A DNA stretch of 64,000 bases from a virus, in IMG/VR virus record IMGVR_UViG_3300020183_000039, positions 1-64,000 of that record; one strand, given 5' to 3'. Numbering within the stretch: the stretch's first letter is position 1; each line of letters opens with the position of its first letter. Under the pieces are notes generated by a model. That model was not told the origin of the DNA. It saw only the letters and a program-made list of their open reading frames with translations, and ran no database searches. Positions 41,284 to 56,718 of this stretch are shown in pieces. Made by a program: the position numbers and the translations under genes.

Positions 41284-41636
41284 CAGATCACGAGAGACAA
41301 TGTAAGCGGCGGCTGCGGCACGCCATTCGTGGAGTAAGTGACCGTCACCACATAGACTCCGTGCTCTCCATTATCCCAATTCCCTTTGACCGAAAGGTCA
41401 TCTAATCCCCCGACTTGGGTCGAGATAGCTTCTGAGATCTTGGAGTCGATAGCAGCAGGATTCACGGTCTCGAACGTGTCTTCCATGAGACCGTAATCGG
41501 CTCGCATGATACGTTCGAATGGTCGGGTCTCCAGAACCGACACAATTTGCTGCTCTAATATAGCAAAGTCTTCAGCAAGTGCGAGCTTGCCATTCTGGGC
41601 TTGAAGAGGATACGAGAGCCCTCGGATGCTTGTCAT
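41283..41636 (-). CDS. Baseplate gp25/GPW-like protein
   Basis: GLSYPL...ILEQQIVSVLETRPFERIMRADYG. Confidence 0.8.
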   Translation of the reverse strand: MTSIRGLSYPLQAQNGKLALAEDFAILEQQIVSVLETRPFERIMRADYGLMEDTFETVNPAAIDSKISEAISTQVGGLDDLSVKGNWDNGEHGVYVVTVTYSTNGVPQPPLTLSLVI

Positions 41637-41932
41637 CTAGCGACGTACCTCTTGACAATTTCCGAATTGATCTTTCTCATCGAGACTTCCCAGCCTTTGG
41701 GACGCTCGGTCCCAAGCCGGGTGACCTCGTTTCGAAGCTTGTCCAAAGGCAAGCTAGGATAGAGTTCGGGGTCGATTTCAACCGAGCTTTTTATGCTCGC
41801 TACTCCATCGAGTCCTGTTTCCAGAAGGGAGGAGCAGAGGGCCCCAAGAGGGACCCCGAGCTCCGCCGCTTTCTGCTTGAGACTCGAGTGGAGATCATCC
41901 TCGACGTCGAACGCCAGGCGTTTCTTAGCCAT
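41633..41932 (-). CDS. Ribbon-helix-helix DNA-binding protein
   Basis: KKRLAFDVEDDLHSSLKQKAAELGVPLGAL. Confidence 0.65.
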   Translation of the reverse strand: MAKKRLAFDVEDDLHSSLKQKAAELGVPLGALCSSLLETGLDGVASIKSSVEIDPELYPSLPLDKLRNEVTRLGTERPKGWEVSMRKINSEIVKRYVAR

Positions 41933-41953
41933 GTTCGATCTCCTAGGCTAGGA

Positions 41954-44900
41954 TCAGGTAGCCGAGATGCCGGATGCCTCGAGAGCGGCCGGGATGCCAC
42001 CGATACCGACGCGGACCAGATCCACCTCGATGCGCTCGAGGGTGGGAACTGGCACCACGAACACCTTCACGTTCACGTAGCCATTCTCCAGAGCACCGCC
42101 GAGGTTGTTCCGCTCGTCGCAGACCACCTGGTAGGCTTCGGAAGGAGTAGCACCGAACAGAGCACCGGGCACGTAGAAGAACTCGTACAGGGTGTTGTCG
42201 GCGATGGCACGGATCTGGTTGAAGGTCACGGCGCGACCGTCGATCACGCTGAAGATCTGGCCATCGAAGGCCTGACGCAGCGTGCCGTAGATCACGTTGA
42301 GGATCACACGAGTGTTCACGAACTGGTACAGGGCCTGTTCGGAATTGCCACGGTTCACGCGAGTACGGGAACCCCAGACAAACACGGGGCCGAACACCTC
42401 ACCGGTGTCTGCATCTACCGTGCTGTAGCCAGGCAGCTGACGCAGGGCATTGAGGCCTTGCGGGTTGCTGATCTCCTGCTGAGCGTTGGTGATGGCGATC
42501 TCGCAACCACGTGCTCCGGCCAAGTTGTACTTCGCACCAGCGGGAGGCAGGCGGAAGCCAGCGGCGGAATCGCGGTAGCGGCGAATTGCCAGGCCAGTGA
42601 CGAACGAAGAGGGCTGGATGAAGAGACCAACGTCGTTCTTGATGTATGGAGCGTAGTAGGCCAGGAAGCCCTGAGTCGTGCTGTAGGAGGTGGCCTCGTT
42701 GAGCAGTCGAGCGTGGTTGTTGATACCAGCTTCGATGACCCGCATCTGAGGAGTGCCGCCGTTGTTCACGCCACGCAGAGCCTCGTTCACCAGATCACCA
42801 GCGGTGATGGCGTCGAAGTTCCACAGGTTGTTGGGGACGTCAACTTCAGGCTCGAGGAACTCGATGTCCACGTAGCCGCCGTACAGGGTGGTGTAGCCTT
42901 GGCCGATCTGAAGCACGGGATGAGCATACACGCCGGTAGCCGAGGTGTTGGCCTGATCACCATAGCTTAGAGGCACGCAGTAGAAGTTGTTCTCGCCAGC
43001 GAAGTCCTGAGCAGGGTTGAGAGGACGAGCAAAGTCGTCTTCGGTGTACTGCCAGGTGTAGGGGTTGGAGATGCTCGTCACGAGGAACTCCACACCGCCA
43101 GCGTTGTTCACACCAGCGCTGATGATGTCGATCTCTGTACCAGCAACCGCGTCTGCGGCGGTCTCGGCGAACTGGATGGTGTTGGGGTCGACCACGATCA
43201 CGAAGTAGATCCCCGTATCTTCCAGACCACCGGCCAGAGTGGCGTTGGTAGCGGTGTTGACGCTCACCTCGTCGCCGGTCAGGTAACCGTGAGAAGCGAT
43301 GGTCACCTCATTGGTCACCACGTCCACGTCAGCGGCTGCGACCTGCCAGACAGGAACGCCAACCGGAGCAGAACCGTAGGACAGGCGCAGGTCGGTGCTG
43401 ATGTCAGCGGTGTAGGCAACGCCGTAAGGGTCGTTCACACCGTTCTGGATGGCAACGTTAGCCTCGTCGCGCACGCCGGCCACCGCGAGAGTCACGTCCA
43501 GCTGGTACTTGCGGCCACGGATGTAGCGCAGCACGCCGGAGTCACTGAACTGGCCGCCGTCCACTGCAGTCGAGAGCTTCTTGTAGAAGCGACGAGCAGC
43601 TGTGGTGATGATCGCGGAAGTTGGGAAGTCAGCGAAGGCGTTAGAAGCCAGGTCGGAAGCCGAACGAGCGAGACGGAAGAAGTTCCGGTCCACCTTCTGA
43701 GCGAAGTACACAGTGGTGGAGGTCGGGGTCGTGCCGCGGAAGATCGTCTCGGTGGCGGTCACAATGCTGCCATCGAAGTACAGCTTGTCAGCGGTAACAA
43801 CGGGGTGCTCGGAGGAGAACACCATGCAGTCGCGGCCGGTCGTCAGAATAGACTGAGCGGGAGCGCCCTGAGGGTTCAGCACAGTGGCAGAGTCGGTACC
43901 AGCGCCGGGGATGGAGATGTTCGTACCGGAGTTGGCATTGGCCAGCGAGGTGGCCAGCTGGATCGTGTTATCGTCGATCCGGATAACAAAGTACTGCGTG
44001 CCGGACGTCAGGTTAGTCGGGCTAGCAGCGCCGTCAGAAGGCAGCAGGTAGTAATTGATCGCGTCGCCGGTGCTATAACCGTGACCGATAACCGTGATCT
44101 CGTCGGTGCCAGTGTTGACGTCGGAAGCATTGAAGTACTTCAGAGTCAGGCCGCCGCTCAGGATTGCCAGAGAGGGGTCAGACAGCTGACGGACCAGACC
44201 CTTATAGTCGTGCTGGGTCGTAGGCTTCTGCAGGGTGCCGGGCAGGTGCAGAGTGTTGAAGGACACGGTGTTCACGCCACCGTTGGCCTCCAGCAGGCTC
44301 GAGATCTTGCCCTTGATCTCTACGTTGAACTCCCAAGCAGGAGTGGAATAGTAGAGAACCAGCATGCCACCGCCTTGAGGGGTGCCAGCGGTGGTGAAGT
44401 TCACGGCTTCGTTGATAGAAGCGCGAGAAGTGCTGGTAGCCAGGCGGATCTGGTTAGGAGCCAGAGTGTTGTCGATGTCGCTCGCGATCACATAGAACGA
44501 ACCGAGAAGGGGCTCGTTAGTGATGCCGGTAGCGGTATCGCTGTAGAGAGGAGCGGTGGGCAGCGGATCGTTCTCGAACAGCTCCACGCTCACGATGGTG
44601 CCGGAAGGCAGGGCATCCACGGGCCACTCTTCGGCCAGAGTCATCACGTCAGTCGCCGTGTTCAGACCGACATCCACGCGGATGCGCTGGTCGTCCTTCA
44701 TGGCAAGACGCTCACCGTCGTTCAGAGCGACGTTAGCCGAGTTAGCGGCGTTGGTGGCGTCGTAGTTGGCGGACGTGAAGAGCAGAGGAGTCGTATCGGT
44801 CCACTCGTAGATCACGTTGTCCACGAGATACAGCTCGCCGGGCTCGAAGCCGTTGGAGGGATTCGCGGGCGTGAAGTCGCGGTAGATCACGATGTCCGTC

Positions 44901-45871
44901 ACGTTGAACGGACCGCAGTCCACCAGAGCCATCCACTTGTGGTTCTGATCGGAGCAAACCTCTTCCATCGTCTGGCCGAGGTTCACGCGGCTTGACTTAC
45001 CGAACTTGCGGAAAGCCGGAGGAGCGATCATGTAGCCCTGGGGCAGGCGAGGCTCTTCGAAAGCGGTGCGAACGCACTGGATGTAGTCGAAGACAGTCTC
45101 GTCGCTCTCGGTGACGTTGGCGATTGCGTAGCCAGCGGCAGCAAGGATGTACAGGGAACCAACGATCTCGTTGGAGTTCACCACCTCGACAGGTGCGTTG
45201 AACACGCGGCCGGTCAGGTAGAGGTATGCGCACTCATCGCAACCAGCGGTACCAACACCTTCCTGGCGGACGTACACGCCAGCGGTGATGTCGCTATTAG
45301 CGTTGATCGCGTCGGACACCGCATCGCGGATGGCCTCAGAGATCTTGACGTTGTTCGTCAGGTCACCGGACACGTAGTCCACGGGGATCTCGACGGGAAC
45401 ACCCAGCCACACGCCGGAAGAGTTCTTCACGCCGAGAGGGATGCCGTTGATCTCCAGCTTGATGTAGACGCGATCGCCTGTCTGGAGAGGGCTAGGAGCG
45501 GTGACGCCGTTGTCCTTGTTGGCCGACGGATCGAAGGCCACCTGGACGATATTGGAGGGAGTACCAACGCGCACAACGCGGAGGTCGCCCACAGTGCACT
45601 GCTGGAAGAAGGCCTTCACAGCATAGTACGAGTCGAGTTCGGCACGGCCTTCGGAAGGCGCGCCACCGATCAGGTTCTCATACTCGTTCAGGCTGCCCAC
45701 AAAGATGGGGCGGTTGAACGGGAAGACGGCCACGGAAGCGGATTGAGGGGCCTCAACCAGCATGTAGACCGTGTTGAAGCTAGCTACCGAGGCGCGAGAA
45801 GCAATCGCGGACTCGTAGATGAAAGTACCCGGAGCACCGCCACGGGCGCCACCAAGCGAGATAGTAGCCAT
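41954..45871 (-). CDS. Tail sheath protein with inserted repeat domains
   Basis: N-terminal APGTFIYE; C-terminal YYAPYI, PPAGAKY, VWGSRT, FVNTRVI, CDERNN, VPTLERI. Confidence 0.9.
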   Translation of the reverse strand: MATISLGGARGGAPGTFIYESAIASRASVASFNTVYMLVEAPQSASVAVFPFNRPIFVGSLNEYENLIGGAPSEGRAELDSYYAVKAFFQQCTVGDLRVVRVGTPSNIVQVAFDPSANKDNGVTAPSPLQTGDRVYIKLEINGIPLGVKNSSGVWLGVPVEIPVDYVSGDLTNNVKISEAIRDAVSDAINANSDITAGVYVRQEGVGTAGCDECAYLYLTGRVFNAPVEVVNSNEIVGSLYILAAAGYAIANVTESDETVFDYIQCVRTAFEEPRLPQGYMIAPPAFRKFGKSSRVNLGQTMEEVCSDQNHKWMALVDCGPFNVTDIVIYRDFTPANPSNGFEPGELYLVDNVIYEWTDTTPLLFTSANYDATNAANSANVALNDGERLAMKDDQRIRVDVGLNTATDVMTLAEEWPVDALPSGTIVSVELFENDPLPTAPLYSDTATGITNEPLLGSFYVIASDIDNTLAPNQIRLATSTSRASINEAVNFTTAGTPQGGGMLVLYYSTPAWEFNVEIKGKISSLLEANGGVNTVSFNTLHLPGTLQKPTTQHDYKGLVRQLSDPSLAILSGGLTLKYFNASDVNTGTDEITVIGHGYSTGDAINYYLLPSDGAASPTNLTSGTQYFVIRIDDNTIQLATSLANANSGTNISIPGAGTDSATVLNPQGAPAQSILTTGRDCMVFSSEHPVVTADKLYFDGSIVTATETIFRGTTPTSTTVYFAQKVDRNFFRLARSASDLASNAFADFPTSAIITTAARRFYKKLSTAVDGGQFSDSGVLRYIRGRKYQLDVTLAVAGVRDEANVAIQNGVNDPYGVAYTADISTDLRLSYGSAPVGVPVWQVAAADVDVVTNEVTIASHGYLTGDEVSVNTATNATLAGGLEDTGIYFVIVVDPNTIQFAETAADAVAGTEIDIISAGVNNAGGVEFLVTSISNPYTWQYTEDDFARPLNPAQDFAGENNFYCVPLSYGDQANTSATGVYAHPVLQIGQGYTTLYGGYVDIEFLEPEVDVPNNLWNFDAITAGDLVNEALRGVNNGGTPQMRVIEAGINNHARLLNEATSYSTTQGFLAYYAPYIKNDVGLFIQPSSFVTGLAIRRYRDSAAGFRLPPAGAKYNLAGARGCEIAITNAQQEISNPQGLNALRQLPGYSTVDADTGEVFGPVFVWGSRTRVNRGNSEQALYQFVNTRVILNVIYGTLRQAFDGQIFSVIDGRAVTFNQIRAIADNTLYEFFYVPGALFGATPSEAYQVVCDERNNLGGALENGYVNVKVFVVPVPTLERIEVDLVRVGIGGIPAALEASGISAT

Positions 45872-45949
45872 TTAGAGTTTAACTCCTTCTTTGATGTTGA
45901 TGGGACTAGCAGCTTCGGACAATCTGCTCGTGGTCCCCGTAGGGGCCCA

Positions 45950-46381
45950 TCAACCACGTTGTGAGTCGGAACTTGCCTGAGGCGAGTCCAGACTGAACCC
46001 GTTGAACCGGTTCTTTTCTAGAAGAGCACCGGCGTTGTACCTCGAAAGCCTCTGAGTAAAGGCATCCAGGGTCTCCCACGGGAAGATAGCGCTTGCAATG
46101 TCCTGGATTTCCGGGTTCGGGTTAGCTCCATTCAGGTTGAGAGCAGTACTCAACTGATTGAGAGTGCCCGGAGTACCGGTAGAAGCGCTCGATGGTGTCT
46201 TACCCAGAACCCCGTCGGGCCCGGACACGAAGATAGCGACACCTTGTGCGGGCGTCGTTCGAATATCATAGCTCTCGTTGAGCTCAAGCAGAGTGCGAAA
46301 CTCCCGAGAGTCTCCGTAGTAAGCGTAACCGAGCTTGTTCCAGCTGTCGCCAGTTTTCCAAACTCTTGTCTTTCCGGCCAT
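45950..46381 (-). CDS. Tail X/LysM-like baseplate protein
   Basis: KTGDSWNKLGYAYYGDSREFRTLLELN. Confidence 0.65.
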   Translation of the reverse strand: MAGKTRVWKTGDSWNKLGYAYYGDSREFRTLLELNESYDIRTTPAQGVAIFVSGPDGVLGKTPSSASTGTPGTLNQLSTALNLNGANPNPEIQDIASAIFPWETLDAFTQRLSRYNAGALLEKNRFNGFSLDSPQASSDSQRG

Positions 46382-46803
46382 TAGAACCTCTGAATCAATC
46401 CCCGGTTGATGGCCTTAGCAGCGGCCTCAGTTATCCTCGGCATAGACATCATCGGGACTCCGAGCCATGGCCTAGCGGGCATCTTAGAAGTTCCGAACAT
46501 GTGGTAGCGACCGTAGTTCGCGCCCATTGTCGCGTTGAAGAGCCCAGGTGCCCCGGCCGGGCGGATACGAGTGTTGTCTTGCATCCGTCCGGTGAGACGA
46601 AGGATCGGCATGCCAGGAGCGCGCCTGGACTTCCACTGCGCGTAGTTAGGTGACAGAGGAGACCACTTCGTACCCTCCTGCGGATCTTGCTCTTGGGTCC
46701 AAGCAAGACGGTTGTCCTGGAGAAGAATCTGCGCCATCTCGTTCTTGGAGTTGGCCCACCAGTTCTCGTTGAAAGTAGAGAATGAACCTCGGAACGAGAT
46801 CAT
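46381..46803 (-). CDS. Virion morphogenesis/tail completion protein (Mu gpG-like)
   Basis: DPQEGTKWSPLSPNY...ILRLTGRM...YGRYHMFGTSKMPARPWLG. Confidence 0.85.
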   Translation of the reverse strand: MISFRGSFSTFNENWWANSKNEMAQILLQDNRLAWTQEQDPQEGTKWSPLSPNYAQWKSRRAPGMPILRLTGRMQDNTRIRPAGAPGLFNATMGANYGRYHMFGTSKMPARPWLGVPMMSMPRITEAAAKAINRGLIQRF

Positions 46804-47254
46804 TTCTTTCTCCGCGCTGCGCGCTTATTCTCCTCGTTCTGCTTTTCTACGAAGTCCGAAAGGATCTTCGCCATGAGGAGGATCTTGGATACCGGTTGTT
46901 CTTCCAACCAGTCGATCGAAGCATCCCATCGTTGTTTGCAGAAGTGAAAAGCCATCTCGAGCCACTGCTCGACTTTCATGACTTTCTCTTCCAAGATGTT
47001 CGGCCCCAACCAACTGGCTAGAGGCTCGACGTATCTAGACGGTATCTTCTCTAGGTCGCTCTCGGTCAGGCCACTAAGCCTCATGATGATGAGGATCACG
47101 AGGTGGTTAGTGGTTATGTCCGGGAAGTCGTTTTCTACGAGGCTGAAGAAGTAGAAGTCCTTCGGAGTCAGCTCTCTGAGGGTGATCGTCGTGCCATTCG
47201 CGAAGGTGATCTCGTAGGTGAAATCCTCTCGCGGGACGACGGTCAGTCGTTTGG
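46800..47254 (-). CDS. -1 frameshift extension of the tail assembly chaperone (GT-like)
   Basis: The frame of 46800..47099 stays open back to the slippery site at 47249-47255: KRLTVVPREDFTYEITFANGTTITLRELTPKDF... Confidence 0.7.
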
Positions 47255-47602
47255 GTCCTCGTTCTCGTCAGTGCCGCCGGCTTTGGCAAGCAGGTCGGTC
47301 ACCTTGCGGAGATCACGCATCTTGAGCTTCTGCAGCTCGTCGAAGGTGATCTTGCCGCTGCCGGTAGAGAGCCGTGCAGCAAGCTTCAGAGAGCGCTCCA
47401 TGTCGCCAGCGCTATTGAGCTTCTCTACGAAGAGCAGATCGCTAGCGGTCATCTCGCGAAGGACAACGTCGCGGCCATCCGAAAGAGTGGCGTAGAACGT
47501 GTTGTCGGCCGCTTGGTAGGAAGATTGGACTTCCATCCCTTGAGCCAATTCTTCTGGAGATTTCCGCATCACGCGGACGCCGGGCTTCGAAGTTTCTTCC
47601 AT
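47243..47602 (-). CDS. Tail assembly chaperone (G-like)
   Basis: LSDGRDVVLREMTASDL...ITFDELQKLKMRDL; ends on a C CCA AAC slippery site. Confidence 0.75.
   Translation of the reverse strand: MEETSKPGVRVMRKSPEELAQGMEVQSSYQAADNTFYATLSDGRDVVLREMTASDLLFVEKLNSAGDMERSLKLAARLSTGSGKITFDELQKLKMRDLRKVTDLLAKAGGTDENEDPND
47249..47255 (-). other. Programmed -1 ribosomal frameshift heptamer C CCA AAC
   Basis: X XXY YYZ pattern in frame, one codon before the TGA of 47243..47602. Confidence 0.7.
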
Positions 47603-47640
47603 GATTGTTTTGAGGTTGCTTCTCGTAGTAACTTTTTACC

Positions 47641-48531
47641 CTAGTTCACACTGACCTTGATGGCCGGGTGCGGGTTGTAATCGTGGAGCTCAAGATCATC
47701 AATCGTGAGACTTTTCGGGTTCAGCCGTTTCAACCACTCAGCGGACAAGGCCATGTTGCACTCGTCGCGATGCGGGAGCAAGATCATGTCCCTGACGGTA
47801 TCATAGCAGTTCTTGTAGATGTGCGAATTGGCACTTGGCATGTAGACATACCGAGCGGTCTTACCAGTGGCTGCCGCTACGACCTTCAGGATGATCGAGT
47901 AGCGCGCGATATCGAGCGGGAAGCCCACGACCATGTCGTTGGACCGAGCGGGAACCATGACGTCGAGCCAGTTGTCCTTGGCGGGACTGAACTGCATCGC
48001 GATGTGGCACGGAGGGCATGCGGGATTGACAGCTGTCGGGTTGTGCGTGATAATCGTAGCCTGCCTGGAGTTCGGGCTTTCGATAAGCCGAACGATCACG
48101 TCGAGAAACTGGTCGACAGAACGGTCGGTGACGAGAGTCTCGTTGGGCATCTCCATTCCAGGAGCAGACGGCGGCCACTGTCGCCACTGGCGGCAATACG
48201 CGGACGCGCCGAGTTCTCCGTTCTCGTCGGCAAGGAAGTCCCAGAAGTGCTTGGCGGGACCGAGAGCCTCGACATTGGTGCTGAACCCAATGTCGAACAG
48301 GAACTCGCGGCAGATGTTCTTCCAGGGAAGCTTCCGAAGGCGGGTGAGAGGGAAACCGACTCGCAAGTCGGCCCGAACAGAACAGCCGAAAGCGGAACGG
48401 GTCTCCCCGTTGCGGCCCTCAAAAATATCCCCATGATCCAGAAGCAGTTCCAGGTACTGCGAGTAGATCGAATCCCAATTGGACGAAAGAAGGGCTCGGT
48501 CTTCGAAGTTCAGAACGTGACCGCGGGTCAT
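47641..48531 (-). CDS. Thymidylate-synthase-family enzyme, predicted dCMP (hydroxy)methyltransferase
   Basis: PPCH catalytic motif, RSND, HIY; RSNDMVVGFPLDIARY has Asp where ThyA has Asn (PFNIA). Confidence 0.8.
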   Translation of the reverse strand: MTRGHVLNFEDRALLSSNWDSIYSQYLELLLDHGDIFEGRNGETRSAFGCSVRADLRVGFPLTRLRKLPWKNICREFLFDIGFSTNVEALGPAKHFWDFLADENGELGASAYCRQWRQWPPSAPGMEMPNETLVTDRSVDQFLDVIVRLIESPNSRQATIITHNPTAVNPACPPCHIAMQFSPAKDNWLDVMVPARSNDMVVGFPLDIARYSIILKVVAAATGKTARYVYMPSANSHIYKNCYDTVRDMILLPHRDECNMALSAEWLKRLNPKSLTIDDLELHDYNPHPAIKVSVN

Positions 48532-48773
48532 ACTCCTCCGTAGATTTTCTTGTTGGTTTTCTCGTAGAGTTCTTCGAACTCAGGGCTATTGTAGCCCTGC
48601 GGCATCTGCACGTAGATCTGAGCGGCTGATCTCAGACTCTCGGCGGCTTGAGACCTGTGGCCCATGTCCCACCGATCGTTGGCGTCATGGAGCCAATCCA
48701 TAGCGTACGCTAGCATAGCGTCCGGGTCTCTCATCATTGGGAACGGCATGTGCGTTTGAGAGCTTGAAGGCAA
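48528..48773 (-). CDS. Hypothetical protein
   Basis: Short helical ORF coupled between the kinase and the TS homologue. Confidence 0.55.
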   Translation of the reverse strand: MPSSSQTHMPFPMMRDPDAMLAYAMDWLHDANDRWDMGHRSQAAESLRSAAQIYVQMPQGYNSPEFEELYEKTNKKIYGGV

Positions 48774-49309
48774 AGAGCCAGTGCGGCTCGAGCGTTTGTC
48801 TGCTTATCGTGAAGCTGTACGTTGGGGAACATCGTGATGTTCTCGTAGAAGTTCAGCAGTTGCTGGGTGTACAGCTCGTGCTCCTGCATCCGCGCGATGT
48901 ACTCGTCGCGGATGAACCAGGGAGAAGCGTCTGGGAAGAGCTCTCGAAGTTCTTGCACATGGAGAGGAGCCGACCAGTGCCAGGGGCGGAGAACCGCGAG
49001 GTGAACCACGTTCTCGACCTGATCCGCTAGCTCGATCTCGAAGTCGATAACGTCTTCAAAGTGGCCAGCGTTGTGCCGGCGATGCTGCTCTAAAATGTAG
49101 CTGCAGGGATAGGCCCGATCGAAGATCGCGTGGGTCTCTCGAAGGCCCCACTTGGCGATGTCTTCGCGGTAGAAATCGAAGATGTTTTTCTGGTTGCTCG
49201 GCGGCGGGCCGTGGTGTGCCACGTAGCAATCGCCATCGAGTTCCTTCATCATGGCATCGATCAGAGTAGACTTGCCGACGCGGTCCGGGCCAGAGACGAT
49301 GATGAGCAT
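48734..49309 (-). CDS. Deoxynucleoside monophosphate kinase-like P-loop protein
   Basis: IIVSGPDRVGKST, HHGPP, IFDR; probable start MLIIVSG at 49309. Confidence 0.75.
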   Translation of the reverse strand: MLIIVSGPDRVGKSTLIDAMMKELDGDCYVAHHGPPPSNQKNIFDFYREDIAKWGLRETHAIFDRAYPCSYILEQHRRHNAGHFEDVIDFEIELADQVENVVHLAVLRPWHWSAPLHVQELRELFPDASPWFIRDEYIARMQEHELYTQQLLNFYENITMFPNVQLHDKQTNARAALALCLQALKRTCRSQ

Positions 49310-49330
49310 GTTGGGATTCTTCACGGTTCC

Positions 49331-49358
49331 ATTATAGCGGTCGGTTGGCATGGTAGTC
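49331..49358 (-). promoter_or_regulatory. Early-type promoter before the dNMP kinase/TS operon
   Basis: GACTAC-N16-TATAAT. Confidence 0.5.
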
Positions 49359-49535
49359 CTATCTGGATGTGACGAAAGCCCAGACGGAGTCCTCGTCGTA
49401 GTACTCCAGATTTAGTACCACGTCCACGGAGCTGAGCATGCGCCGCTCCTTGTGGTCAAAAAAGTTGATCGTTGCGTAAGGCCTGCTCCTCGACAGGAGA
49501 TCGAGATTGTAGAACTGGGCTTTCTTTTTGCTCAT
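49359..49535 (-). CDS. Hypothetical protein (58 aa, not in the ORF track)
   Basis: Hand-translated MSKKKAQFYNLDLLSRSRPYATINFFDHKERR...; GAGG upstream. Confidence 0.45.
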   Translation of the reverse strand: MSKKKAQFYNLDLLSRSRPYATINFFDHKERRMLSSVDVVLNLEYYDEDSVWAFVTSR

Positions 49536-49564
49536 CGGTGGTGTCCTCGGAGGTCAAGGGTGAG

Positions 49565-49708
49565 TTAGATAAGGTGGGACGGGGTACATCGTACTTTGTC
49601 CAGAAGTAGTCGTTTCATCGGGTCCTGGTCAATCTCCGCAAGATTGCAGGCCTGAACCAGGTTGCATCGTCCTCGGTACAGGGCATCGAGGGCTCGTTCT
49701 AATTTCAT
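49565..49708 (-). CDS. Small hypothetical protein, possibly HTH
   Basis: MKLERALDALYRGRCNLVQACNLAEI, coupled to the polymerase stop. Confidence 0.45.
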   Translation of the reverse strand: MKLERALDALYRGRCNLVQACNLAEIDQDPMKRLLLDKVRCTPSHLI

Positions 49709-52605
49709 CAAAGCAGTCCTCGCTGCACCATAGAGTACCTTGTCTCGAGCTTCTTCACCCAGCCGAGCTCGGCCATCTGCTTCATCGAGAACTCCTCGCC
49801 ATCTGGCTCGTCGTCCCACTGGGACGGGGTCTTGGTGCTCTCGTGGACAGACTTGCGGAGCCGGTCGTCGATCGCCACGGAGGAGAAGAACGCTCGGCTC
49901 AGGGGCACGTCGCACATGCCGACGCCCGCTTGGAACCTCGCCCACGAGTACAGGTGGGCCATCTGGAACGCCACCGAGAAAGCTTCAGCCTGCTTCTCGG
50001 GGACCATGAACCACGTCTCGTCGTGGATCGACAGGATGAACTGCGCGGAGATCTTGAACCGACGAGCCAGCCAGTGGGACGCCGTCAGGATCACAGCGAG
50101 CATCTCGGCGCCGGAGGACTGGATGGTCCAGTTGATGCGGCCGGTGTGGAAGTCGTCGCCAACAGCCGCTGGGCGAAGCGCTGTGGAGATCTTCGTTCCG
50201 AGACAGGGGAGCTGCGGCACCTTAGTTCGAAGTGCGATGCCCTCCATGTAGTTGTAGCAGCCGCTGTCGCTGCCGCCCTCGTAGTAGCCATCCGGGCTCT
50301 TCTGGCCCTTCTTGAAGGCCAAAGCTCGGTTACCATACTGGCGAAGCTCGTTTGTGCCGCGGTCCTTGAACTTTTTCTGGATCGTCCCGGCGATGGTCCG
50401 GACCCCTGCGCCATAGAGCATAGCGAAACCGACACCCTTGGCCGTGTCGCGGTCGATGTTGATCGCCTTAGCGAGCTTGGTGTGAGCATCGGTGCCCTTC
50501 TCTTTTGAGCCGGAAAGCACCGTGTGCGCCATCGGAGATGCCCCGATGAACCCGCCCTCCCAAGCGTCCGCATAGATGCTGGCGATCTGAAGCTCCTGGC
50601 CGTCGAAGTCAGCCCCGACGATTTTCCAGCCCGGCGGACATTGGATCCTGGACTTCAGCTCGGTGCCGATGCGATGGGACTTCGTGGAGCACATGGTGAC
50701 CATCAACGACTCGACAGTTCGCCGAGTCACGGTCCCATGAGCGATGATCTCGGGCATCATCATGTTCCAGTGGTTGCCATACGGGTTGTCAACCTCCAGG
50801 AAGATGCGGTCCATGACACGCTTGCGCACAGACGTCCAGTAAGAGGCGGCATTCGCGATCTCCAGAGCGCGCTTAGCGTCTGGCAATTCGCTGCTAAGCC
50901 GCCCTACTTCCATGTCCATGGTAAAGTCTTTCGACAGCAGTTGGCCCACGTTATTGCCATTGCCCTTGGGATGAGGGATCCGCTGGACCTTGCCGTCCTC
51001 GTCTGTGAAGCACCAGCCAAGCTCTTTGGTGTTGATCACCGGGCTGCCCTCCCACTTGAGCTTGAGGAGCAGATTGGAAAGCTTTGACTTAGTGGTGATT
51101 CTCTCGTCAGGGCTAGTGAGAAGCTCGGAGGCCCACTTCGGCTTGAATGCGTACTTGCCGGTGTAACCACGAGGAGTCCAGCTGAGCTGTGAGAGCCACG
51201 GGTCAGCGGCTACCCAGGCGTCGGAGTTGTGCCTCCAGGCATGACCCTGCTTATCGAAGCCACGAAGAACGTCAGTGAACTTCACGGTCTTCTTGCCGCC
51301 AAGGCCAGCCAGAGCGATAGCGGTCTCAGGGTCCGTATCGAAGAGCTTCTGCGCCTCGAGAAGATCCTTATCAAACTCCTTGTTCCACTCGGCGACGTAC
51401 CGCTCGACCAGCTTGTGGCAGATGTCGGTCATCTCGCGGTTGTGGTTCTCGAAGACCTTCTCGACCTGCGCGATCCACTTGGTCCAGTCGGTCGAGACAG
51501 GAATGCGCGAGCCATTGAGGAAGTAGTGGCCGGCAAGCCCGACCTTCGAGGGAGTAGCGTCGAGGTACTTCGGCCAGAGAGCTTGGAACAACTCGGTGGT
51601 GTAGAACGCGTCTTTCATCGCGTAGTCGAGTAGGTCGCGCCGCTGAGCCAACTGGTGGATCTCCGTCGCCTTCACGAAGACGTCTCGGATCTCTTTGTCG
51701 GCGTCCCGCATGCGGTGGACCTCCTTGCCGAAATACTCTCGAACCGCCGCAACGTGGAAGTTGTAGACGTTGACCAGAGCGTTGGTCGAGCCTTCGTCGG
51801 CCCAGCGCGGGCGGAAGCGGAGCTTCTTCTTCTCCTCTTCGGTCAGATCCTCTGGGTCCTTGCCCGAGAGCACGTAGAGCCAGCGTTGCCCTGATGCCAG
51901 GCCAGACACGGCGATGTGCGCCGAGAGCGTGTCGAAGTAGAAGTTCTCGGGCTCAGTTCGCTCCAGAGTGTAGCCATCGCGAGCGCGCACTCGGTCGTAG
52001 GAGATGTTGTGGCCGACCACGAAGTTGTCGTCACCGAGCGGGATGAGCCCGTACTGAGTCCACTTGTCATGCGGAATGAGCGGATCGCACATCTCAGCGG
52101 CCAGCCAGACATACGCTGCTTCAGACGAAAGGCAGGTGCCGATGACCGGAAAGGCTCCGTTGACCACGAAGGTCTCGGTATCGTACGTGAAGGCGCTCTC
52201 AAGCGGGTGAGGCACCGACTCAGTCACCCAGTTGTTGCCCTGCTTGGTGTAGCGGGTCCAGCCAGGTTGGAACACGAAGTCGTCGTAGCTTGGAACAGCT
52301 GGAAGACTGGCTTGAGAGAACTCATTCGCTAGCTCGATGTAGCGATCAACAAATTCCCCGGCCATGAGTTCGAAGTGCCCTTCGATGCCATCGCCCTGCA
52401 GTTCCGGAAAGGGCAGGTCTCCGTCGTAGAGATTGTCCGGGTAGTCTACCGGGACAGGGATCTCGAACCTACTAAGAAGCCGCCTCGACCGTTCGAGCGT
52501 GGAGCTCTTGGGCGCGGGGCGGCTTGCGGAACCGAAGAGCTTTTTGTGGAGGTCACCCTCGAGTACAGGATAGCCTTGCTCGTTCAGCTTCATAGACGTT
52601 GCCAT
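49708..52605 (-). CDS. Family A DNA polymerase, mitochondrial Pol-gamma-like
   Basis: Exo motifs YDTET, VVGHNISYDR, DTLSAH; GTVTRR, VGADFDGQEL, GTDAH, YGAG, RINWTIQSSG, SIHDE, AFFSSVAIDDRLRK. Confidence 0.93.
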   Translation of the reverse strand: MATSMKLNEQGYPVLEGDLHKKLFGSASRPAPKSSTLERSRRLLSRFEIPVPVDYPDNLYDGDLPFPELQGDGIEGHFELMAGEFVDRYIELANEFSQASLPAVPSYDDFVFQPGWTRYTKQGNNWVTESVPHPLESAFTYDTETFVVNGAFPVIGTCLSSEAAYVWLAAEMCDPLIPHDKWTQYGLIPLGDDNFVVGHNISYDRVRARDGYTLERTEPENFYFDTLSAHIAVSGLASGQRWLYVLSGKDPEDLTEEEKKKLRFRPRWADEGSTNALVNVYNFHVAAVREYFGKEVHRMRDADKEIRDVFVKATEIHQLAQRRDLLDYAMKDAFYTTELFQALWPKYLDATPSKVGLAGHYFLNGSRIPVSTDWTKWIAQVEKVFENHNREMTDICHKLVERYVAEWNKEFDKDLLEAQKLFDTDPETAIALAGLGGKKTVKFTDVLRGFDKQGHAWRHNSDAWVAADPWLSQLSWTPRGYTGKYAFKPKWASELLTSPDERITTKSKLSNLLLKLKWEGSPVINTKELGWCFTDEDGKVQRIPHPKGNGNNVGQLLSKDFTMDMEVGRLSSELPDAKRALEIANAASYWTSVRKRVMDRIFLEVDNPYGNHWNMMMPEIIAHGTVTRRTVESLMVTMCSTKSHRIGTELKSRIQCPPGWKIVGADFDGQELQIASIYADAWEGGFIGASPMAHTVLSGSKEKGTDAHTKLAKAINIDRDTAKGVGFAMLYGAGVRTIAGTIQKKFKDRGTNELRQYGNRALAFKKGQKSPDGYYEGGSDSGCYNYMEGIALRTKVPQLPCLGTKISTALRPAAVGDDFHTGRINWTIQSSGAEMLAVILTASHWLARRFKISAQFILSIHDETWFMVPEKQAEAFSVAFQMAHLYSWARFQAGVGMCDVPLSRAFFSSVAIDDRLRKSVHESTKTPSQWDDEPDGEEFSMKQMAELGWVKKLETRYSMVQRGLL

Positions 52606-52627
52606 CTGATAGGTTGTGTTTGCCTTG

Positions 52628-52655
52628 ATTATAGCCTCGACGGTCAGTTGTAAAC
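52628..52655 (-). promoter_or_regulatory. Early promoter of the DNA polymerase
   Basis: GTTTAC-N16-TATAAT. Confidence 0.7.
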
Positions 52656-52820
52656 CGTGAGGAGCCCGTAGGACCCTTTGCCCTCGCGGAGCTCTTCCGC
52701 GATCTCGAAAGCCTGCTCAAGAAGAATCTCGCCTTCGATCTCCATCGAATTAGCAAAAAGCTCGTCGGCACGGCTCACAAGGTAGTGAATGCGGTCGACG
52801 GCTGAGTCGCGGTAGTCCAT
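52644..52820 (-). CDS. Hypothetical protein (58 aa, not in the ORF track)
   Basis: Hand-translated MDYRDSAVDRIHYLVSRADELFANSMEIEGE... Confidence 0.45.
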   Translation of the reverse strand: MDYRDSAVDRIHYLVSRADELFANSMEIEGEILLEQAFEIAEELREGKGSYGLLTVYN

Positions 52821-52859
52821 GGAAGGGGTCCTGTCTGAGGTATTATGCCTCGAGGAGAG

Positions 52860-53060
52860 CTAGTGAATACTTCGGCTCTTCTCAAAGATTCCTCGGCAGA
52901 TGTCGATGTCTCTCATCGCTTGCTCGAGAGACTCTGCATTGCCGGCGAAGATTTCGTCCACCGCAGCACCGCAATTGAGGACCCAGCGGTACTGGGAGAC
53001 ATGCTCACTGAACCAGATCTGGCAAATCGGATGGCTCACGGCGTCGTCCTTTAAGCGCAT
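52860..53060 (-). CDS. Hypothetical protein
   Basis: 66-aa ORF in the minus-strand gene run. Confidence 0.45.
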   Translation of the reverse strand: MRLKDDAVSHPICQIWFSEHVSQYRWVLNCGAAVDEIFAGNAESLEQAMRDIDICRGIFEKSRSIH

Positions 53061-53409
53061 TTCCGGAGTCGCGTCTCCAGTTGTAGCCAGATGACAGGTT
53101 GACCTTGTCTTCAGGTGGGATGTCCCAGAGGGTTTTACCTATGTCGCCATCGAACAACCCGATATCAAAGTTGTCGTCAAGCTCTTCGAGGAACTCTCGA
53201 CGCTCGTTCCACTTCCGGTGTAATCGAAGCCTCCACTTCATGTACTCGTCTCTGGCTCGTCGACTCTTAGTCGCTTTCCACTGAGAGTACCAGTTCTCGA
53301 GCGCGCTCACGATGCCGATTCCGGCTTTCATCTTGAGCTGCCCCAGTTTCTTCTGGTTGGAGTTGGTCTCTTCAGCCCACTCCTCGAGTCCCCGGATGTT
53401 GCTAGTCAA
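53005..53409 (-). CDS. Hypothetical protein
   Basis: W-rich helical ORF overlapping the upstream stop. Confidence 0.5.
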   Translation of the reverse strand: MTSNIRGLEEWAEETNSNQKKLGQLKMKAGIGIVSALENWYSQWKATKSRRARDEYMKWRLRLHRKWNERREFLEELDDNFDIGLFDGDIGKTLWDIPPEDKVNLSSGYNWRRDSGNALKGRRREPSDLPDLVQ

Positions 53410-54250
53410 GGTCCGCCTCCAGACGAGTAGTTATGGCCTGTTTGTTGAGCTCTGGGATGCCACTTCCCTCCCTGACGTCATCTCTGTACCTCTCGATGTT
53501 CTCCATTGCGTCGAACACCAGAGGGAAGCTGAGAGCCCGGTTAGCAGGGAAGTCCCGCCAGGCTATCATTTCAGCAAGAGTGTAAGGTGAATCTTCTTCC
53601 CAAGCCTCGTCTCTGGCACCATACAGGAGCGGGAGGCCGTCATTGACCCACCACTCCCGAACGATGGGGACGTACTTGTCCCAAGTACCAGGTTCGACAA
53701 GCGATAGTTTGCACTCCTCGCGGAACGCTTTGACGTAGTGGCGCCCGCGCTTGACGACTTCTACCGCGCTCGGAGGTACCTCCTCGAGGATATAGGCCTC
53801 CTCGCCGCTCATGACCCTTTCGTAGACAGACGGGAAGAGGATCGCCTGAGATATCAACTCGAAGTCGGGAGCAGTATCGCCCTGCTTCGACCAGTTAGAT
53901 ATGTTGAAGAGGATCGAATCGAAGATCGCCACTGTGCGGGCTTTCTTCACGGCCTCGGTCGTCACCGTGGTCTTGGCTGCCGTGGCATTGGCCTTCTCGA
54001 GCTCGGCCTCTAGCTCCTGGATGCGCCTCTGGAGCTTTCGATTCTCAGTCGTCGCAGCCCGCTCGACTTTGGCTTTGTAGGCGTCTAGACCTTGCCCGAT
54101 CTTGTCGGCCGCGATCGTCATCTTGCCCATGTGCTCTTCGAGCTTCTGCACCCAGAGGTTGAACGAGTTCTCGAGCTTCTTGATGTCCGCCACCATCTCA
54201 TCCTTCTGAGTGTTGAGGCGGTTAAGCTCGTAGTCGATCCAGTGGTGCAT
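53402..54250 (-). CDS. Hypothetical protein with an N-terminal coiled coil
   Basis: 282 aa; CATAAT box upstream. Confidence 0.65.
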   Translation of the reverse strand: MHHWIDYELNRLNTQKDEMVADIKKLENSFNLWVQKLEEHMGKMTIAADKIGQGLDAYKAKVERAATTENRKLQRRIQELEAELEKANATAAKTTVTTEAVKKARTVAIFDSILFNISNWSKQGDTAPDFELISQAILFPSVYERVMSGEEAYILEEVPPSAVEVVKRGRHYVKAFREECKLSLVEPGTWDKYVPIVREWWVNDGLPLLYGARDEAWEEDSPYTLAEMIAWRDFPANRALSFPLVFDAMENIERYRDDVREGSGIPELNKQAITTRLEADLD

Positions 54251-54274
54251 CAGAGTTGGTTCCTGTTTGGTGTA

Positions 54275-54880
54275 TTATGCTACCAAGGACGCCCCGGTAG
54301 ATTTAGATTCCAAGCCGCAACCTCTATCGCTTCGCGTCGACAAAGCCCCTGCTGACGAGCTACGCGGTAACGGGTCTCGTACTGCCTCTCTTTTCCTAAG
54401 CTTCTGGCTGTCTCCCAGAACGCTCGGCAACGGTTGTCCAATTCGCCATCCATGGCGGTGGTACCTGACAAGAAAGCCTTTGAGGGCTCCGTCGTTGACC
54501 TCGTCGGGAAGTGGCCTGTGCCCCTTAACGAAAATCCTCCACGAGTCGAAGGCGTATTGCCCACAACCGTAGAGGCTTCGGGGATCTTTTCGATCCCATT
54601 CAATGTACTGCTCCGACATCTTTCTGAGCCGCTTGGCCTTGACGTTCGAGAAACCGTGAGGCTTCAGTAGTTCCTCAAGCGAGGAATCTGAAGACGCGAG
54701 CTCTGCGGCGATCGGCCATCTTTCGAACAAACTTTCTAAGCAGATGTCCCAGGCCTCTGTCCTGCGGCTCTGATTTAGCAGGATGGCTGAGACAAGGATG
54801 TGCCATTCGGTCGGGAGAGACTCTTGGATGAGCCACTCTCTTGCGTAGGAACTCGAGAGGGGCGGGTTGGTTTCCGACAT
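54275..54880 (-). CDS. MBD4-like HhH DNA glycosylase (G:T mismatch type)
   Basis: WHILVSAILLNQS...LFERWP...LKPHGFSNVKAKRLRKMS...LYGCGQYAFDSWRIF...VNDGAL. Confidence 0.8.
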   Translation of the reverse strand: MSETNPPLSSSYAREWLIQESLPTEWHILVSAILLNQSRRTEAWDICLESLFERWPIAAELASSDSSLEELLKPHGFSNVKAKRLRKMSEQYIEWDRKDPRSLYGCGQYAFDSWRIFVKGHRPLPDEVNDGALKGFLVRYHRHGWRIGQPLPSVLGDSQKLRKREAVRDPLPRSSSAGALSTRSDRGCGLESKSTGASLVA

Positions 54881-54895
54881 CGAATTTGCTTCGTT

Positions 54896-55459
54896 TCACT
54901 TCACGCGTCGTACTGATGCTTTGAGCTGGTCCGCGTTGAGGTCTACCACTTCGACCCTGAAATCGAAAAGCTTCTCGGGATCCGAGAGGAGGTGGAACTG
55001 GCCGGAGAAGCAGTCGTTCTCTGAGTCGCGGAGGAACTCGTTAGCGGGAGTCGGAGGCTCGCAGAGCGCGATGTCTCCAGCAACCTCGGGAGCGGCCTCC
55101 TCGATCGCGCGGATCAGGCGAGCGTTGATCGTCGAGGTGATCGCGAACTCTTCCTCAGTCTTGATCGAGGAGTAGTATTGCTCGTCCTCACTTGGGTGAA
55201 GCTCGATGGCATTGCCATTCTGGAGGATCACCTGGACCACCCGCTCGTCCTCGGGCTTCAATCGAAAGCACACCTCGGGAGATCCGAACTCGGCATCTTC
55301 CTCGCAGTCCGCTTCGAGAATGCGAATCTCGATCAGGTCGTAGAAGGCGCCAGCAAGAGTCTCCCAGTCCGGACCATCAAGGATCTTGGCGATAGCCATG
55401 AAGATCTTCGGGTTGGCCAGCAGTCGCTCCGTGGGGTAGATGATCTGCGTTGTATCCAT
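54896..55459 (-). CDS. Acidic hypothetical protein
   Basis: Probable start MDTTQ at 55459, 30 nt after a TGGTAA motif. Confidence 0.6.
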   Translation of the reverse strand: MDTTQIIYPTERLLANPKIFMAIAKILDGPDWETLAGAFYDLIEIRILEADCEEDAEFGSPEVCFRLKPEDERVVQVILQNGNAIELHPSEDEQYYSSIKTEEEFAITSTINARLIRAIEEAAPEVAGDIALCEPPTPANEFLRDSENDCFSGQFHLLSDPEKLFDFRVEVVDLNADQLKASVRRVK

Positions 55460-55502
55460 GAACTCCACAGGAGGCTTCACGGATTGATTTTACCAATCTA
55501 GA

Positions 55503-56201
55503 TCAGAAGTAGATCAACTGCCGGTCTTCGATTCTGTAGACAGGCAGGCGCCCGCCCTCGTTGCCGCAAGAGCCATCGAGTACGATCGAAGAGTCGCTGA
55601 TGTGTACGCAGTGGTAGTGGCCAGCAACGCGTGTCCACGGGAAAGTCTTGTCGGTTTCCCACCAACGAACGCGCTGCCCGGTCGCGTGGTCGATCTTGCC
55701 GTAGAGCATCATGCCGCGAGCCTTGGAGTTAGTGTCCTCGTAGAGCACAGGTCGTGCCATGGCTTCGTTGATCTCCCCGCCGATCCAGCTAGGGAAATAG
55801 GCGTGAGCCGCTCTGTACTCTCTCAAGCGAGAATCTTTGAAGATGTAGCCGTAGTAAGCTTTGGACAGCCAGGTCCGGATCTCCTCGCGGTCGATGTTCG
55901 TATCGTCGAACTCCTTGATCGTGCGTGCCAGCCCTGGCGTCTTAACCAGATCGACCGGGTTGCCCTTGTAGAACCGGAGGAGCTTGTCCTGGTGGTTCGA
56001 ATGGATGACCACGGCCCCGAACGCGTCCTGGAAGGTGCGCACTAGGCCGTAGACCTCAGCGGTCTCGGACGTGTTACAGCGTGAGTCGAACAGGTCACCG
56101 AGGAGGATGACGAGGCAGTCCGGGATCTGAGCCGCGTACTCTAGAGCTTTCTCCAGCGGGCGCGCTTGCGAGTGCACGTCGCCGATGATCAAAGTTTCCA
56201 T
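55503..56201 (-). CDS. Calcineurin-like metallophosphoesterase (Pnkp phosphatase-like)
   Basis: IIGDVH, LGDLFD, SNHQ, AAHA, AGHYH, LDGSC; start METLII coupled to the kinase stop. Confidence 0.8.
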   Translation of the reverse strand: METLIIGDVHSQARPLEKALEYAAQIPDCLVILLGDLFDSRCNTSETAEVYGLVRTFQDAFGAVVIHSNHQDKLLRFYKGNPVDLVKTPGLARTIKEFDDTNIDREEIRTWLSKAYYGYIFKDSRLREYRAAHAYFPSWIGGEINEAMARPVLYEDTNSKARGMMLYGKIDHATGQRVRWWETDKTFPWTRVAGHYHCVHISDSSIVLDGSCGNEGGRLPVYRIEDRQLIYF

Positions 56202-56650
56202 CAGATGCGTATCGTGGCGGTGAAGCCCTCTTTGTCGATAGACGAGAGCTGGGATTTCAGGATGCACCACATGTTCTCCACCACGTGGTCTGGCACCTCG
56301 CGGTCCCGAGCCGAGTTGCGGGCCAAGCACTCTTCAAGAGTGGCGTCGACGACCACCCCGATCACGGTCTCGTACCCGGAGCGTCGTAACAGGTTGATCG
56401 CCTCGCGGCGGTAGGAGGTCCTGTAGTGGGTCGCGTCTAAGATAACGGGGTTACCTACGTTAGTGCTGACCTTGCGTTCTAGGACCTTCTTGATCTCCGC
56501 CCAGTCGCCCTGGATCCTCTCCGACCCGTAGAGCTCCTCTCGGATCGTGTCGGTCGAAACGACAAGAGCCCCGACTACGTCAGCCAGGACTCTAGCACGT
56601 GTGGTCTTGCCAGAGCCCGGGGCCCCGATCATGACATACGCGGCGGTCAT
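56201..56650 (-). CDS. Polynucleotide kinase-like P-loop protein (AAA_33)
   Basis: GAPGSGKTT, STDTIR, ILDAT, CLARNSARDREVP. Confidence 0.85.
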   Translation of the reverse strand: MTAAYVMIGAPGSGKTTRARVLADVVGALVVSTDTIREELYGSERIQGDWAEIKKVLERKVSTNVGNPVILDATHYRTSYRREAINLLRRSGYETVIGVVVDATLEECLARNSARDREVPDHVVENMWCILKSQLSSIDKEGFTATIRI

Positions 56651-56672
56651 CTTGTTCCTTTATGCCATTCCA

Positions 56673-56700
56673 ATTCTATCCGAGTCTGACTTAAGCAAAC
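56673..56700 (-). promoter_or_regulatory. Early promoter
   Basis: GTTTGC-N16-TAGAAT. Confidence 0.6.
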
Positions 56701-56718
56701 CTGGCTTGTACCGGCTGA

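Follow-up and report, generated by a model that had tools for sequence, protein, structure and literature searches.

A ThyA homologue with aspartate at the dCMP-specificity position, paired with a small kinase gene, suggests a modified-cytosine pathway in freshwater cyanophages

We examined a thymidylate synthase (TS) homologue of the ThyA family encoded in a stretch of viral DNA of 64,000 nucleotides (the window), which is the start of the 86,569-base IMG/VR contig IMGVR_UViG_3300020183_000039 (CheckV completeness estimate 39%). The active site of this homologue, together with its gene neighbourhood, suggests that it serves the synthesis of a modified cytosine nucleotide. The source of the contig is a freshwater cyanophage. 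The stretch is found in lake-water metagenomes of 2018 and in one freshwater run from 2021. Its DNA polymerase shares 48.7% identity with the protein annotated 'DNA polymerase gamma' in Synechococcus phage S-CBWM1 and 36-37% with the polymerases of the S-TIM5 group. A megablast of positions 40000-60000 against a phage collection of 50,697 records returned no match.

The genes of interest follow each other on the minus strand in the order polymerase, 58-aa open reading frame (ORF), kinase, 81-aa ORF and TS homologue. The polymerase (49708..52605) is a family-A enzyme with a mitochondrial Pol-gamma-type exonuclease domain (PF18136, E 3.5e-56; PF00476, 1.3e-10). The 58-aa ORF (49359..49535) is conserved in 13 of 16 related loci and has no match in Pfam or PHROG. 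It is followed by a P-loop protein of the nucleotide-kinase fold (48734..49351) and by the 81-aa ORF (48528..48773), whose stop overlaps the TS start codon by 4 bases; homologues of the latter occupy the same place in 9 of the 16 loci, and Pfam, PHROG and PADLOC give no match for it. The TS homologue itself (47641..48531, 296 aa) is a predicted C5 one-carbon transferase acting on deoxycytidine monophosphate (dCMP). A preliminary description of this locus had placed a deoxynucleoside-monophosphate (dNMP) kinase-like gene upstream of the TS homologue, with the polymerase adjoining, and this arrangement stands. The early promoter it had assumed there finds no support: a sigma-70-type scan of 47000-53200 yielded 2 sites versus 1.7 expected, neither of them upstream of the kinase.

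At its downstream end, the TS stop codon is overlapped by the motif GGGTAAAA (47634..47641, minus strand), where the late (tail) module starts. The window contains six copies of this motif (11185, 23905, 34671, 36837, 39893 and 47634), all on the minus, coding strand, versus 0.52 expected, and none of 100 shuffles reaches six. About 30 bases separate the copy at 47634 from the ATG of the tail-chaperone-like gene that follows it, and those at 23905, 34671, 36837 and 39893 stand just upstream of minus-strand ORF starts (by ORF coordinates). GGGTAAAA is thus likely to be a late promoter or transcript-start motif. Since the TS stop overlaps the first of these late motifs, the TS homologue appears to be the last gene of the replication module, a position that would fit synthesis of a modified nucleotide alongside replication.

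Membership of the ThyA family is unambiguous. The protein matches PF00303 (Thymidylat_synt) at E 5.1e-50 with 170.5 bits (cut-off 24.3), over profile positions 2-264 of 266. HMMER matched 120 PDB sequences at E <= 0.001, and all 60 matches listed are TS or dihydrofolate reductase (DHFR)-TS. With an AlphaFold2 model as the Foldseek query against PDB, the best 50 matches are likewise all thymidylate synthases; the model has a mean pLDDT (predicted local distance difference test) of 73.8 and is poor in loops 93-138 and 162-176. PADLOC gave no match.

We aligned the homologue with E. coli K-12 ThyA (sequence from NC_000913). Arg21 of E. coli corresponds to Arg40, Glu58 to Glu76, Trp80 to Trp97, Tyr94 to Tyr112, Cys146-His147 to Cys175-His176, Arg166 to Arg196, Asp169 to Asp199, and His207 and Tyr209 to His237 and Tyr239. 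The catalytic Cys146 is thus kept, and so are Arg21, Glu58, Tyr94, Arg126, Arg166, Ser167, His207 and Tyr209; the C-terminal tail reads ...PAIKVSVN versus ...PGIKAPVAI in E. coli. The features by which a canonical synthase forming thymidine monophosphate (dTMP) is recognised, Asn177 held by Gln165 together with Leu143, are replaced by Asp207, Ala and Cys172, respectively, and the position of Arg127 is occupied by Gln. Asp207 lies within residues 196-211 (RSNDMVVGFPLDIARY), which HMMER pairs with RS(A/C)DxFLGxPFNIASY of solved thymidylate synthases, setting the Asp on the Asn. The preliminary description had read the sequence in the same way, with Asp at the Asn177 position, an intact catalytic PCH and an Asp at the same place in T4 dCMP hydroxymethylase; all three points agree with our alignments, where T4 gp42 has Asp in that very column. 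Moreover, Asp207, Cys172, Cys175, His176 and Asp199 are invariant in 120 of 120 homologues from public metagenomes (57-100% identity). Such invariance indicates that the Asp is more than a chance substitution and is under selection.

Next, we compared the active site with ThyA homologues of phages with DNA chemistry documented in PMC13326640, bioRxiv 2024.12.05.627091 and PMC8670742. At E. coli positions 80/143/147/165/169/177, the dTMP-forming E. coli ThyA and RB69 td both read W/L/H/Q/D/N. The synthases of Xp12 and PaMx74, which form 5-methyl-dCMP (5mdCMP), read W/N/P/L/D/D, T4 gp42 (5-hydroxymethyl-dCMP, 5hmdCMP) W/D/T/M/D/D, and RB69 gp48 (5-hydroxy-dCMP, 5hodCMP) A/E/T/M/N/D. Among the enzymes forming 5-hydroxymethyl-deoxyuridine monophosphate (5hmdUMP), SPO1 gp29 and the M6 homologue read M/D/N/N/D/N and the PhiW-14 homologue A/D/N/Q/D/N. 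For position 143 of PaMx74, a first alignment gave Leu; a second alignment and counting back from the catalytic Cys gave Asn, which is used here. The homologue of this contig and the 'ThyA' of cyanophage S-TIM5 share W/C/H/A/D/D, and the signature Trp80/Cys143/His147/Asp169/Asp177 matches none of the aligned enzymes of known product. In real thymidylate synthases Asn177 is oriented by Gln165; that position is occupied by Ala here, by Met in T4 gp42 and RB69 gp48, and by Leu in Xp12 TS.

According to mutagenesis cited in PMC8670742, the Asn177-to-Asp change turns TS to dCMP and yields 5mdCMP, and the same source finds Asp177 homologues enriched on modified-cytosine contigs. Under the residue rules of PMC13326640, Asp177 denotes dCMP as substrate, an acidic residue at 143 hydroxymethyl and Leu143 methyl transfer, and Asn169 a 5-hydroxy-dCMP synthase. 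The Asp177 principle has already been published and used in screening (PMC8670742; bioRxiv 2024.12.05.627091; PMC13326640). Under these published rules, the enzyme studied here counts as a dCMP enzyme but not as a 5-hydroxy-dCMP synthase. Its Cys at 143 is a state outside the rules, from which the product is not readable. The five aligned hydroxymethylases and hydroxylases (T4 gp42, SPO1 gp29, M6, PhiW-14 and RB69 gp48) all have Asp or Glu at 143 and a residue other than His at 147. The lack of an acidic 143, together with the TS-like Trp80, His147 and C-terminal tail, makes us lean towards methyl transfer.

A close known counterpart is the Xp12/PaMx74-type 5-methyl-dCMP synthase; Xp12 DNA is fully 5-methylcytosine (5mC) and Xp12 TS makes 5-methyldeoxycytidine (bioRxiv 2024.12.05.627091). 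Both types share the ThyA fold, Asp177, loss of Gln165, retention of Asp169 and Trp80, and a non-acidic residue at 143. They differ in Asn143 and Pro147 there versus Cys143 and His147 here, they belong to different clades, and their gene clusters are not the same: Xp12 TS is adjoined by a HAD hydrolase, a dCMP deaminase and DHFR, none of which flanks the gene of this contig, and Xp12 has no homologue of the kinase. A functional parallel is offered by gp42 and gp1 of T4, where an Asp177 ThyA homologue and a phage kinase supply modified dCTP to the phage polymerase before replication. However, T4 gp42 has Asp143 and Thr147, consists of 246 aa, is devoid of a TS-like C-terminal tail and is the most distant row in our tree.

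To place the enzyme, 1.84 billion representatives were searched exhaustively, which gave 6,729 matches, 22 of them at E <= 1e-30, identity dropping from 60% to 44% after the first match. The tree (a quick IQ-TREE run with SH-aLRT support) comprised 102 rows, namely the query, five references and 96 representatives, these being the ones of 240-340 aa among the 150 best (54 outside this range were excluded). The query falls into a clade of 20 rows (support 98), 19 of which have Asp177, the remaining one being a fragment gapped there. Position 143 in this clade is Cys in 13 rows, Gln in 3, Ile in 2, and Val and Leu in 1 each. All 71 Leu143/Asn177 rows lie outside it, 68 of them in a group of 77 rows (support 99) that also contains scattered Leu143/Asp177 rows. 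T4 gp42 and PaMx74 form long branches outside both groups.

The S-TIM5 'ThyA' (AEZ65733; JQ245707 140905-141741, L027 4010-4846) belongs to the clade of the query. It is 35.9% identical to the enzyme of this contig and has the same active-site signature, including Ala165, Leu176 and Gln127. S-TIM5 also encodes the kinase, a Pol-gamma-like polymerase and the alternative thymidylate synthase ThyX. Automatic annotation labels all genes of this ThyA type plain thymidylate synthase; for S-TIM5 we consider the label doubtful because of the Cys143/His147/Asp177 signature and because ThyX is also encoded. Literature searches on cyanophages and S-TIM5, with subscription journals, supplements and figures outside their scope, brought up nothing on modified cytosine in cyanophages and nothing on this clade, and the accessible passages on S-TIM5 mention only its deaminase. 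Figures of tested enzymes outside that search (PMC13326640 Fig. 6A; bioRxiv 2024.12.05.627091 Supplementary Fig. 1E) may include a clade member. New here are this clade and its kinase partner; the kind of enzyme is known.

The kinase displays the motifs SGPDRVGKST, FDRAYPCSY and HRRxNAGH. It measures 205 aa as an ORF; its relatives start at a Met that would give 191 aa, so that 49309 is the likely start. Pfam gave weak P-loop matches and, at E <= 0.1, no match to polyphosphate kinase 2 (PPK2) or thymidylate kinase, while a PHROG named thymidylate kinase was matched at 6.6e-8. Its AlphaFold2 model (mean pLDDT 87.9) found in PDB, as best 12 matches, PPK2 chains (7.8e-6 to 6.3e-5), with thymidylate and deoxynucleoside kinases next in rank; chains of these three kinds range from E 8e-6 to 4e-4 with template-modelling (TM) scores of 0.5-0.6. 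A profile of 14 kinase sequences matched PPK2 at 1.9e-5 over residues 2-70 (P-loop to FDRxY) and one chain at 0.0032 over residues 2-170. Judged by the model, the protein has a nucleotide-kinase fold. The P-loop with Asp (SGPDRVGKST) and the FDRxY motif align with PPK2, but the protein has just 191 aa versus about 240-300. PADLOC returned only weak P-loop noise.

Of the related contigs, 16 extend upstream of the ThyA homologue, and all 16 carry the kinase gene there. This set derives from 19 related IMG/VR loci, three of which begin within the TS gene (for two of them this is a contig end; the third is L006, whose upstream half is L023), and the count includes four contigs where the TS-kinase pair is placed elsewhere relative to the polymerase. 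The two genes are within about 350 bases of each other in 15 contigs and 1.7 kb apart in one. The best viral structural match of the kinase is H6WFX4, an uncharacterised protein of S-TIM5 (TM 0.74, 29% identity; profile E 7e-28), encoded about 36 kb from the ThyA gene of that phage. In S-CBWM1, neither the ThyA homologue nor the kinase was found, and the pair is thus an addition relative to that phage. Conserved synteny, along with the presence of both genes in S-TIM5 and of neither in S-CBWM1, indicates that kinase and ThyA homologue travel together across distant cyanophages.

The kinase profile found nothing in T4, Xp12, SPO1, M6, PaMx74 and RL38J1; for T4 this holds at E <= 1 against the whole genome, and no homology to T4 gp1 was detected. 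The 191-aa protein was also considered as a 5-hydroxymethyldeoxyuridine (5-hmdU) DNA kinase and rejected, the E values being 0.16 (PhiW-14) and 0.48 (M6) with filters off. RB69 yielded just one faint P-loop similarity to the profile, in a 186-aa open frame about 1 kb from gp48 (NC_004928 24323-24589, minus strand; 13.3 bits, E 0.003 for this genome).

Another gene of the module deserves attention. At 54275..54880 (minus strand), 5.7 kb from the gene of the ThyA homologue, lies a HhH-GPD DNA glycosylase of 201 aa (PF00730, 2.4e-7). MBD4 accounts for 15 of its 17 PDB matches (3e-12 to 2e-11), endonuclease III reaching just 6.6e-4, and the catalytic-Asp segment is kept, FDSWRIF aligning with NDSYRIF; the domain is thus MBD4-like. 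MBD4 removes T or 5-hydroxymethyluracil (5hmU) opposite G, the products of deaminated 5mC or 5-hydroxymethylcytosine (5hmC). In Xp12, the second gene upstream of TS encodes a homologue (QNN97216, L033 2244-2726), annotated as hypothetical, whose best 15 PDB matches are MBD4 (about 5e-14) and which is 31% identical to the glycosylase of this contig (3e-12). Within the phage collection, the Xp12 protein as a query found 13 records, all 13 Xp12-like and holders of an Xp12-type TS, and the glycosylase of this contig found one, S-TIM54, which also carries the ThyA homologue. MBD4-like glycosylases in the collection were thus found only in phages with an Asp177 ThyA homologue, which fits DNA rich in 5-(hydroxy)methylcytosine. 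Their occurrence in 5mC phages tilts the balance towards methyl. A candidate role for the glycosylase is repair at sites where 5-(hydroxy)methylcytosine has deaminated (T:G or 5hmU:G). Searches of S-CBWM1, T4, SPO1, M6 and PhiW-14 gave no homologue, PADLOC gave no match, and a literature search on MBD4 with bacteriophage and Xp12 surfaced only a methods paper.

We then asked how relatives with this gene obtain thymidylate. ThyX is present in three of three related ThyA-bearing genomes searched, namely S-TIM5, G002 and G001 (149,878 bases, bounded by direct terminal repeats), and also in S-CBWM1; on the 86.6 kb of this contig it was not found. In G001, G002, S-TIM5 and a further record, G003, the Asp177 gene is the only member of the ThyA family. 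With ThyX in the relatives, thymidylate is already covered there and the ThyA homologue is not needed for dTMP.

Taken together, we estimate at about three in four the probability that the locus encodes some modified-cytosine pathway. The preliminary description had proposed such a pathway, with 5-methyl or 5-hydroxymethyl as the modification, and the proposal is strengthened by Asp177, the lost Gln165, ThyX in relatives, the kept kinase and the location in the replication module. In this pathway, a folate-dependent enzyme of the ThyA fold would take dCMP, not dUMP, and transfer a one-carbon unit onto C5. The added group would most likely be methyl, giving 5-methyl-dCMP by the reductive chemistry of thymidylate synthase, a tentative choice that we hold at somewhat less than even odds. 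The kinase encoded upstream would phosphorylate the modified monophosphate. Once phosphorylated again, the nucleotide would be incorporated by the Pol-gamma-like polymerase of the module, which is presumed to use the modified dNTP. Cytosine in the phage DNA would be largely replaced by 5mC, and the MBD4-like glycosylase would remove thymine from T:G mispairs arising by 5mC deamination.

Several observations weigh against 5-methylcytosine as the product or against complete replacement. Cys143 departs from both the Leu of TS and the Asn of Xp12, and so small a residue might admit water. The clade stands apart from the Xp12-type enzymes and has no aligned member of known product. In two relatives, G001 and the contig of loci L020 and L073, there is a member of the 5-hmdU DNA kinase family, which acts on hydroxymethyl; the two homologues share 78% identity. 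The MBD4-like gene was not found in S-TIM5, G002 or PaMx74 (first 50 kb). DHFR was not found in any of five records searched, including G001 with its direct terminal repeats and the complete S-TIM5, whereas Xp12 and PaMx74 keep it next to TS; reductive methylation of every cytosine would therefore require much dihydrofolate recycling by the host. Finally, MazG was found in none of the five records and no dCTPase turned up in an incomplete scan, so full replacement of cytosine is not assured.

A possible alternative, though one we find less probable than methyl transfer, is that the enzyme is a dCMP hydroxymethylase. Water instead of hydride would then quench the exocyclic methylene, 5-hydroxymethyl-dCMP would be formed, kinase and polymerase would place 5hmC in DNA, and in some relatives the 5-hmdU-DNA-kinase homologue would activate the hydroxymethyl group. 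Such an enzyme releases tetrahydrofolate and needs no DHFR, in agreement with its absence from the five records, and the replacement of Leu143 by a small residue, Cys172, which all 120 homologues share, also speaks for it. On the other hand, Asp or Glu at 143 combined with a non-His residue at 147, as found in the five aligned hydroxymethylases and hydroxylases, contrasts with the Cys and His of this enzyme.

A further argument for hydroxymethylation comes from the PF18723 (HMUDK_hel) homologues of the two relatives just mentioned, located at 38282-39202 in G001 (L047 18282-19199; E 8.2e-21) and at L073 10001-10915 in the L020/L073 contig (E 2.7e-22). The family matches M6 and PhiW-14, and not SPO1, PaMx74 or RL38J1. 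M6 and PhiW-14 hypermodify thymidine via 5hmU, and PMC5889632 names the 5-hmdU DNA kinase and a protein of the HhH-glycosylase fold as core shared genes of this hypermodification; an HhH-fold protein is found in the present module as well. These homologues suggest a hydroxymethyl-pyrimidine in DNA at least in G001 and the L020/L073 contig. Yet the homologue, which PADLOC does not match, appears accessory and not core, since no PF18723 match occurs in this contig, G002, G003 or the complete S-TIM5. It and a 220-aa ORF form an insertion that separates the lysozyme gene from the RNA ligase gene; in this contig that place is taken by tRNA-Thr (CGT) and tRNA-Asn (GTT) (61255-61326 and 61467-61540, minus strand). 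The G001 insertion also has a 2OG-Fe(II) oxygenase, of which the L020/L073 contig keeps just a remnant; it matches just two uncharacterised PDB proteins, and one may conjecture that it makes 5hmC from 5mC in DNA. Furthermore, the glycosylase of the module resembles MBD4 and the Xp12 protein, and no homologue of it was found in M6 or PhiW-14.

The hydroxymethyl reading can be extended into a rather unlikely, more far-reaching proposal. The Cys143/Asp177 clade would make 5-hydroxymethyl-dCMP, which a private kinase, perhaps a cut-down PPK2 working on cyanobacterial polyphosphate, would feed into DNA, and in G001 and the L020/L073 contig 5hmC would be phosphorylated in DNA and further decorated. 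If true, widespread cyanophages would have a pathway acting on cytosine that parallels the hypermodification of thymidine.

That the enzyme is an ordinary thymidylate synthase converting dUMP to dTMP, with the Asp merely tolerated, we consider improbable. It does show full-length TS similarity, with 31-37% identity to phage and bacterial TS, it passes the cut-off of NCBIfam TIGR03284 (124.2 versus 108.35 bits), its homologues bear the JGI name thymidylate synthase, and most catalytic residues are kept. Yet it stays under the cut-off in seven of the eight NCBIfam TS equivalog models. Neither the invariance of Asp177 and loss of Gln165 and Leu143, nor ThyX in relatives carrying the gene, nor the position of every Leu143/Asn177 row outside its clade is expected of such an enzyme, and the mutagenesis cited in PMC8670742 shows that Asn-to-Asp switches specificity.

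Slightly less probable again is a role of 5-methyl-dCMP mainly as a route to dTTP via deamination, as proposed for Xp12, in which case cytosine in DNA would be mostly canonical. A gene of the dCMP-deaminase family is present in G001, S-TIM5 and S-CBWM1, deaminases acting on 5-methyl-dCTP have been linked to Asp177 TS genes (bioRxiv 2024.12.05.627091), and no dCTPase or MazG that would exclude dCTP was found. But ThyX in the same genomes makes a second dTMP route superfluous, the deaminase lies far from TS in G001 (131 kb versus 53 kb), and S-CBWM1 has a deaminase without any TS. A dedicated kinase and an MBD4-like glycosylase also make more sense if the modified base is in DNA. A flavin-dependent 5-hydroxy-dCMP synthase of the RB69 gp48/DLP3 gp80 kind is very improbable: Asp177 is present and such ThyA homologues work with a cognate dNMP kinase (PMC13326640), but Asp169 has not changed to the diagnostic Asn (all 120 homologues keep Asp199), Glu is missing from position 143, Trp80 is kept versus Ala in RB69 gp48, and no glycosyltransferase turned up among the scanned proteins. 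That scan was incomplete; of the G001 genes, it covered only part by Pfam (28 protein queries, one repeated). A small remainder of the probability falls on none of these readings.

Should the modified-cytosine pathway be confirmed, a freshwater and marine cyanophage group, including the cultured S-TIM5 and S-TIM54, would replace cytosine with a modified base. Its DNA would then behave differently in restriction, towards CRISPR and other host defences, and in sequencing and methylation surveys of lake and ocean viromes. The rules linking ThyA homologues to their products would have to admit a third state at position 143, the modified-dNMP kinases would be joined by a new family of small kinases, and MBD4-type glycosylases would be tied to genomes made of 5mC. 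S-TIM5 and S-TIM54 are isolates that share the active-site signature and the kinase, so the prediction is testable on cultured phages.

Some further observations concern the contig and its relatives. ORFs were called by a simple longest-ORF rule, which produces spurious antisense calls in this G+C-rich DNA; G+C is 0.68 over positions 1-8000 versus 0.55-0.60 elsewhere in the window. In G001, positions 142481-145767 hold sequences 88-93% identical to stretches of S-CBWM1 and S-TIM5, which we take to be putative psbA/psbD; the beginning of the same gene is found at the far end of the present contig near 86568. The ThyA match in IMGVR_UViG_3300033604_000028 is split over loci L006/L023 (residues 1-62, 62-296), about 10 bases apart, which may be a locus boundary or a small gene break. 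The early module of the window also encodes two calcineurin-like metallophosphoesterases and a T4-Rnl1-like RNA ligase (55503-56330, 56719-57501 and 59677-60759, minus strand), and beyond the window end follow a GyrA-like protein, an ATP-dependent DNA ligase and a flap endonuclease.

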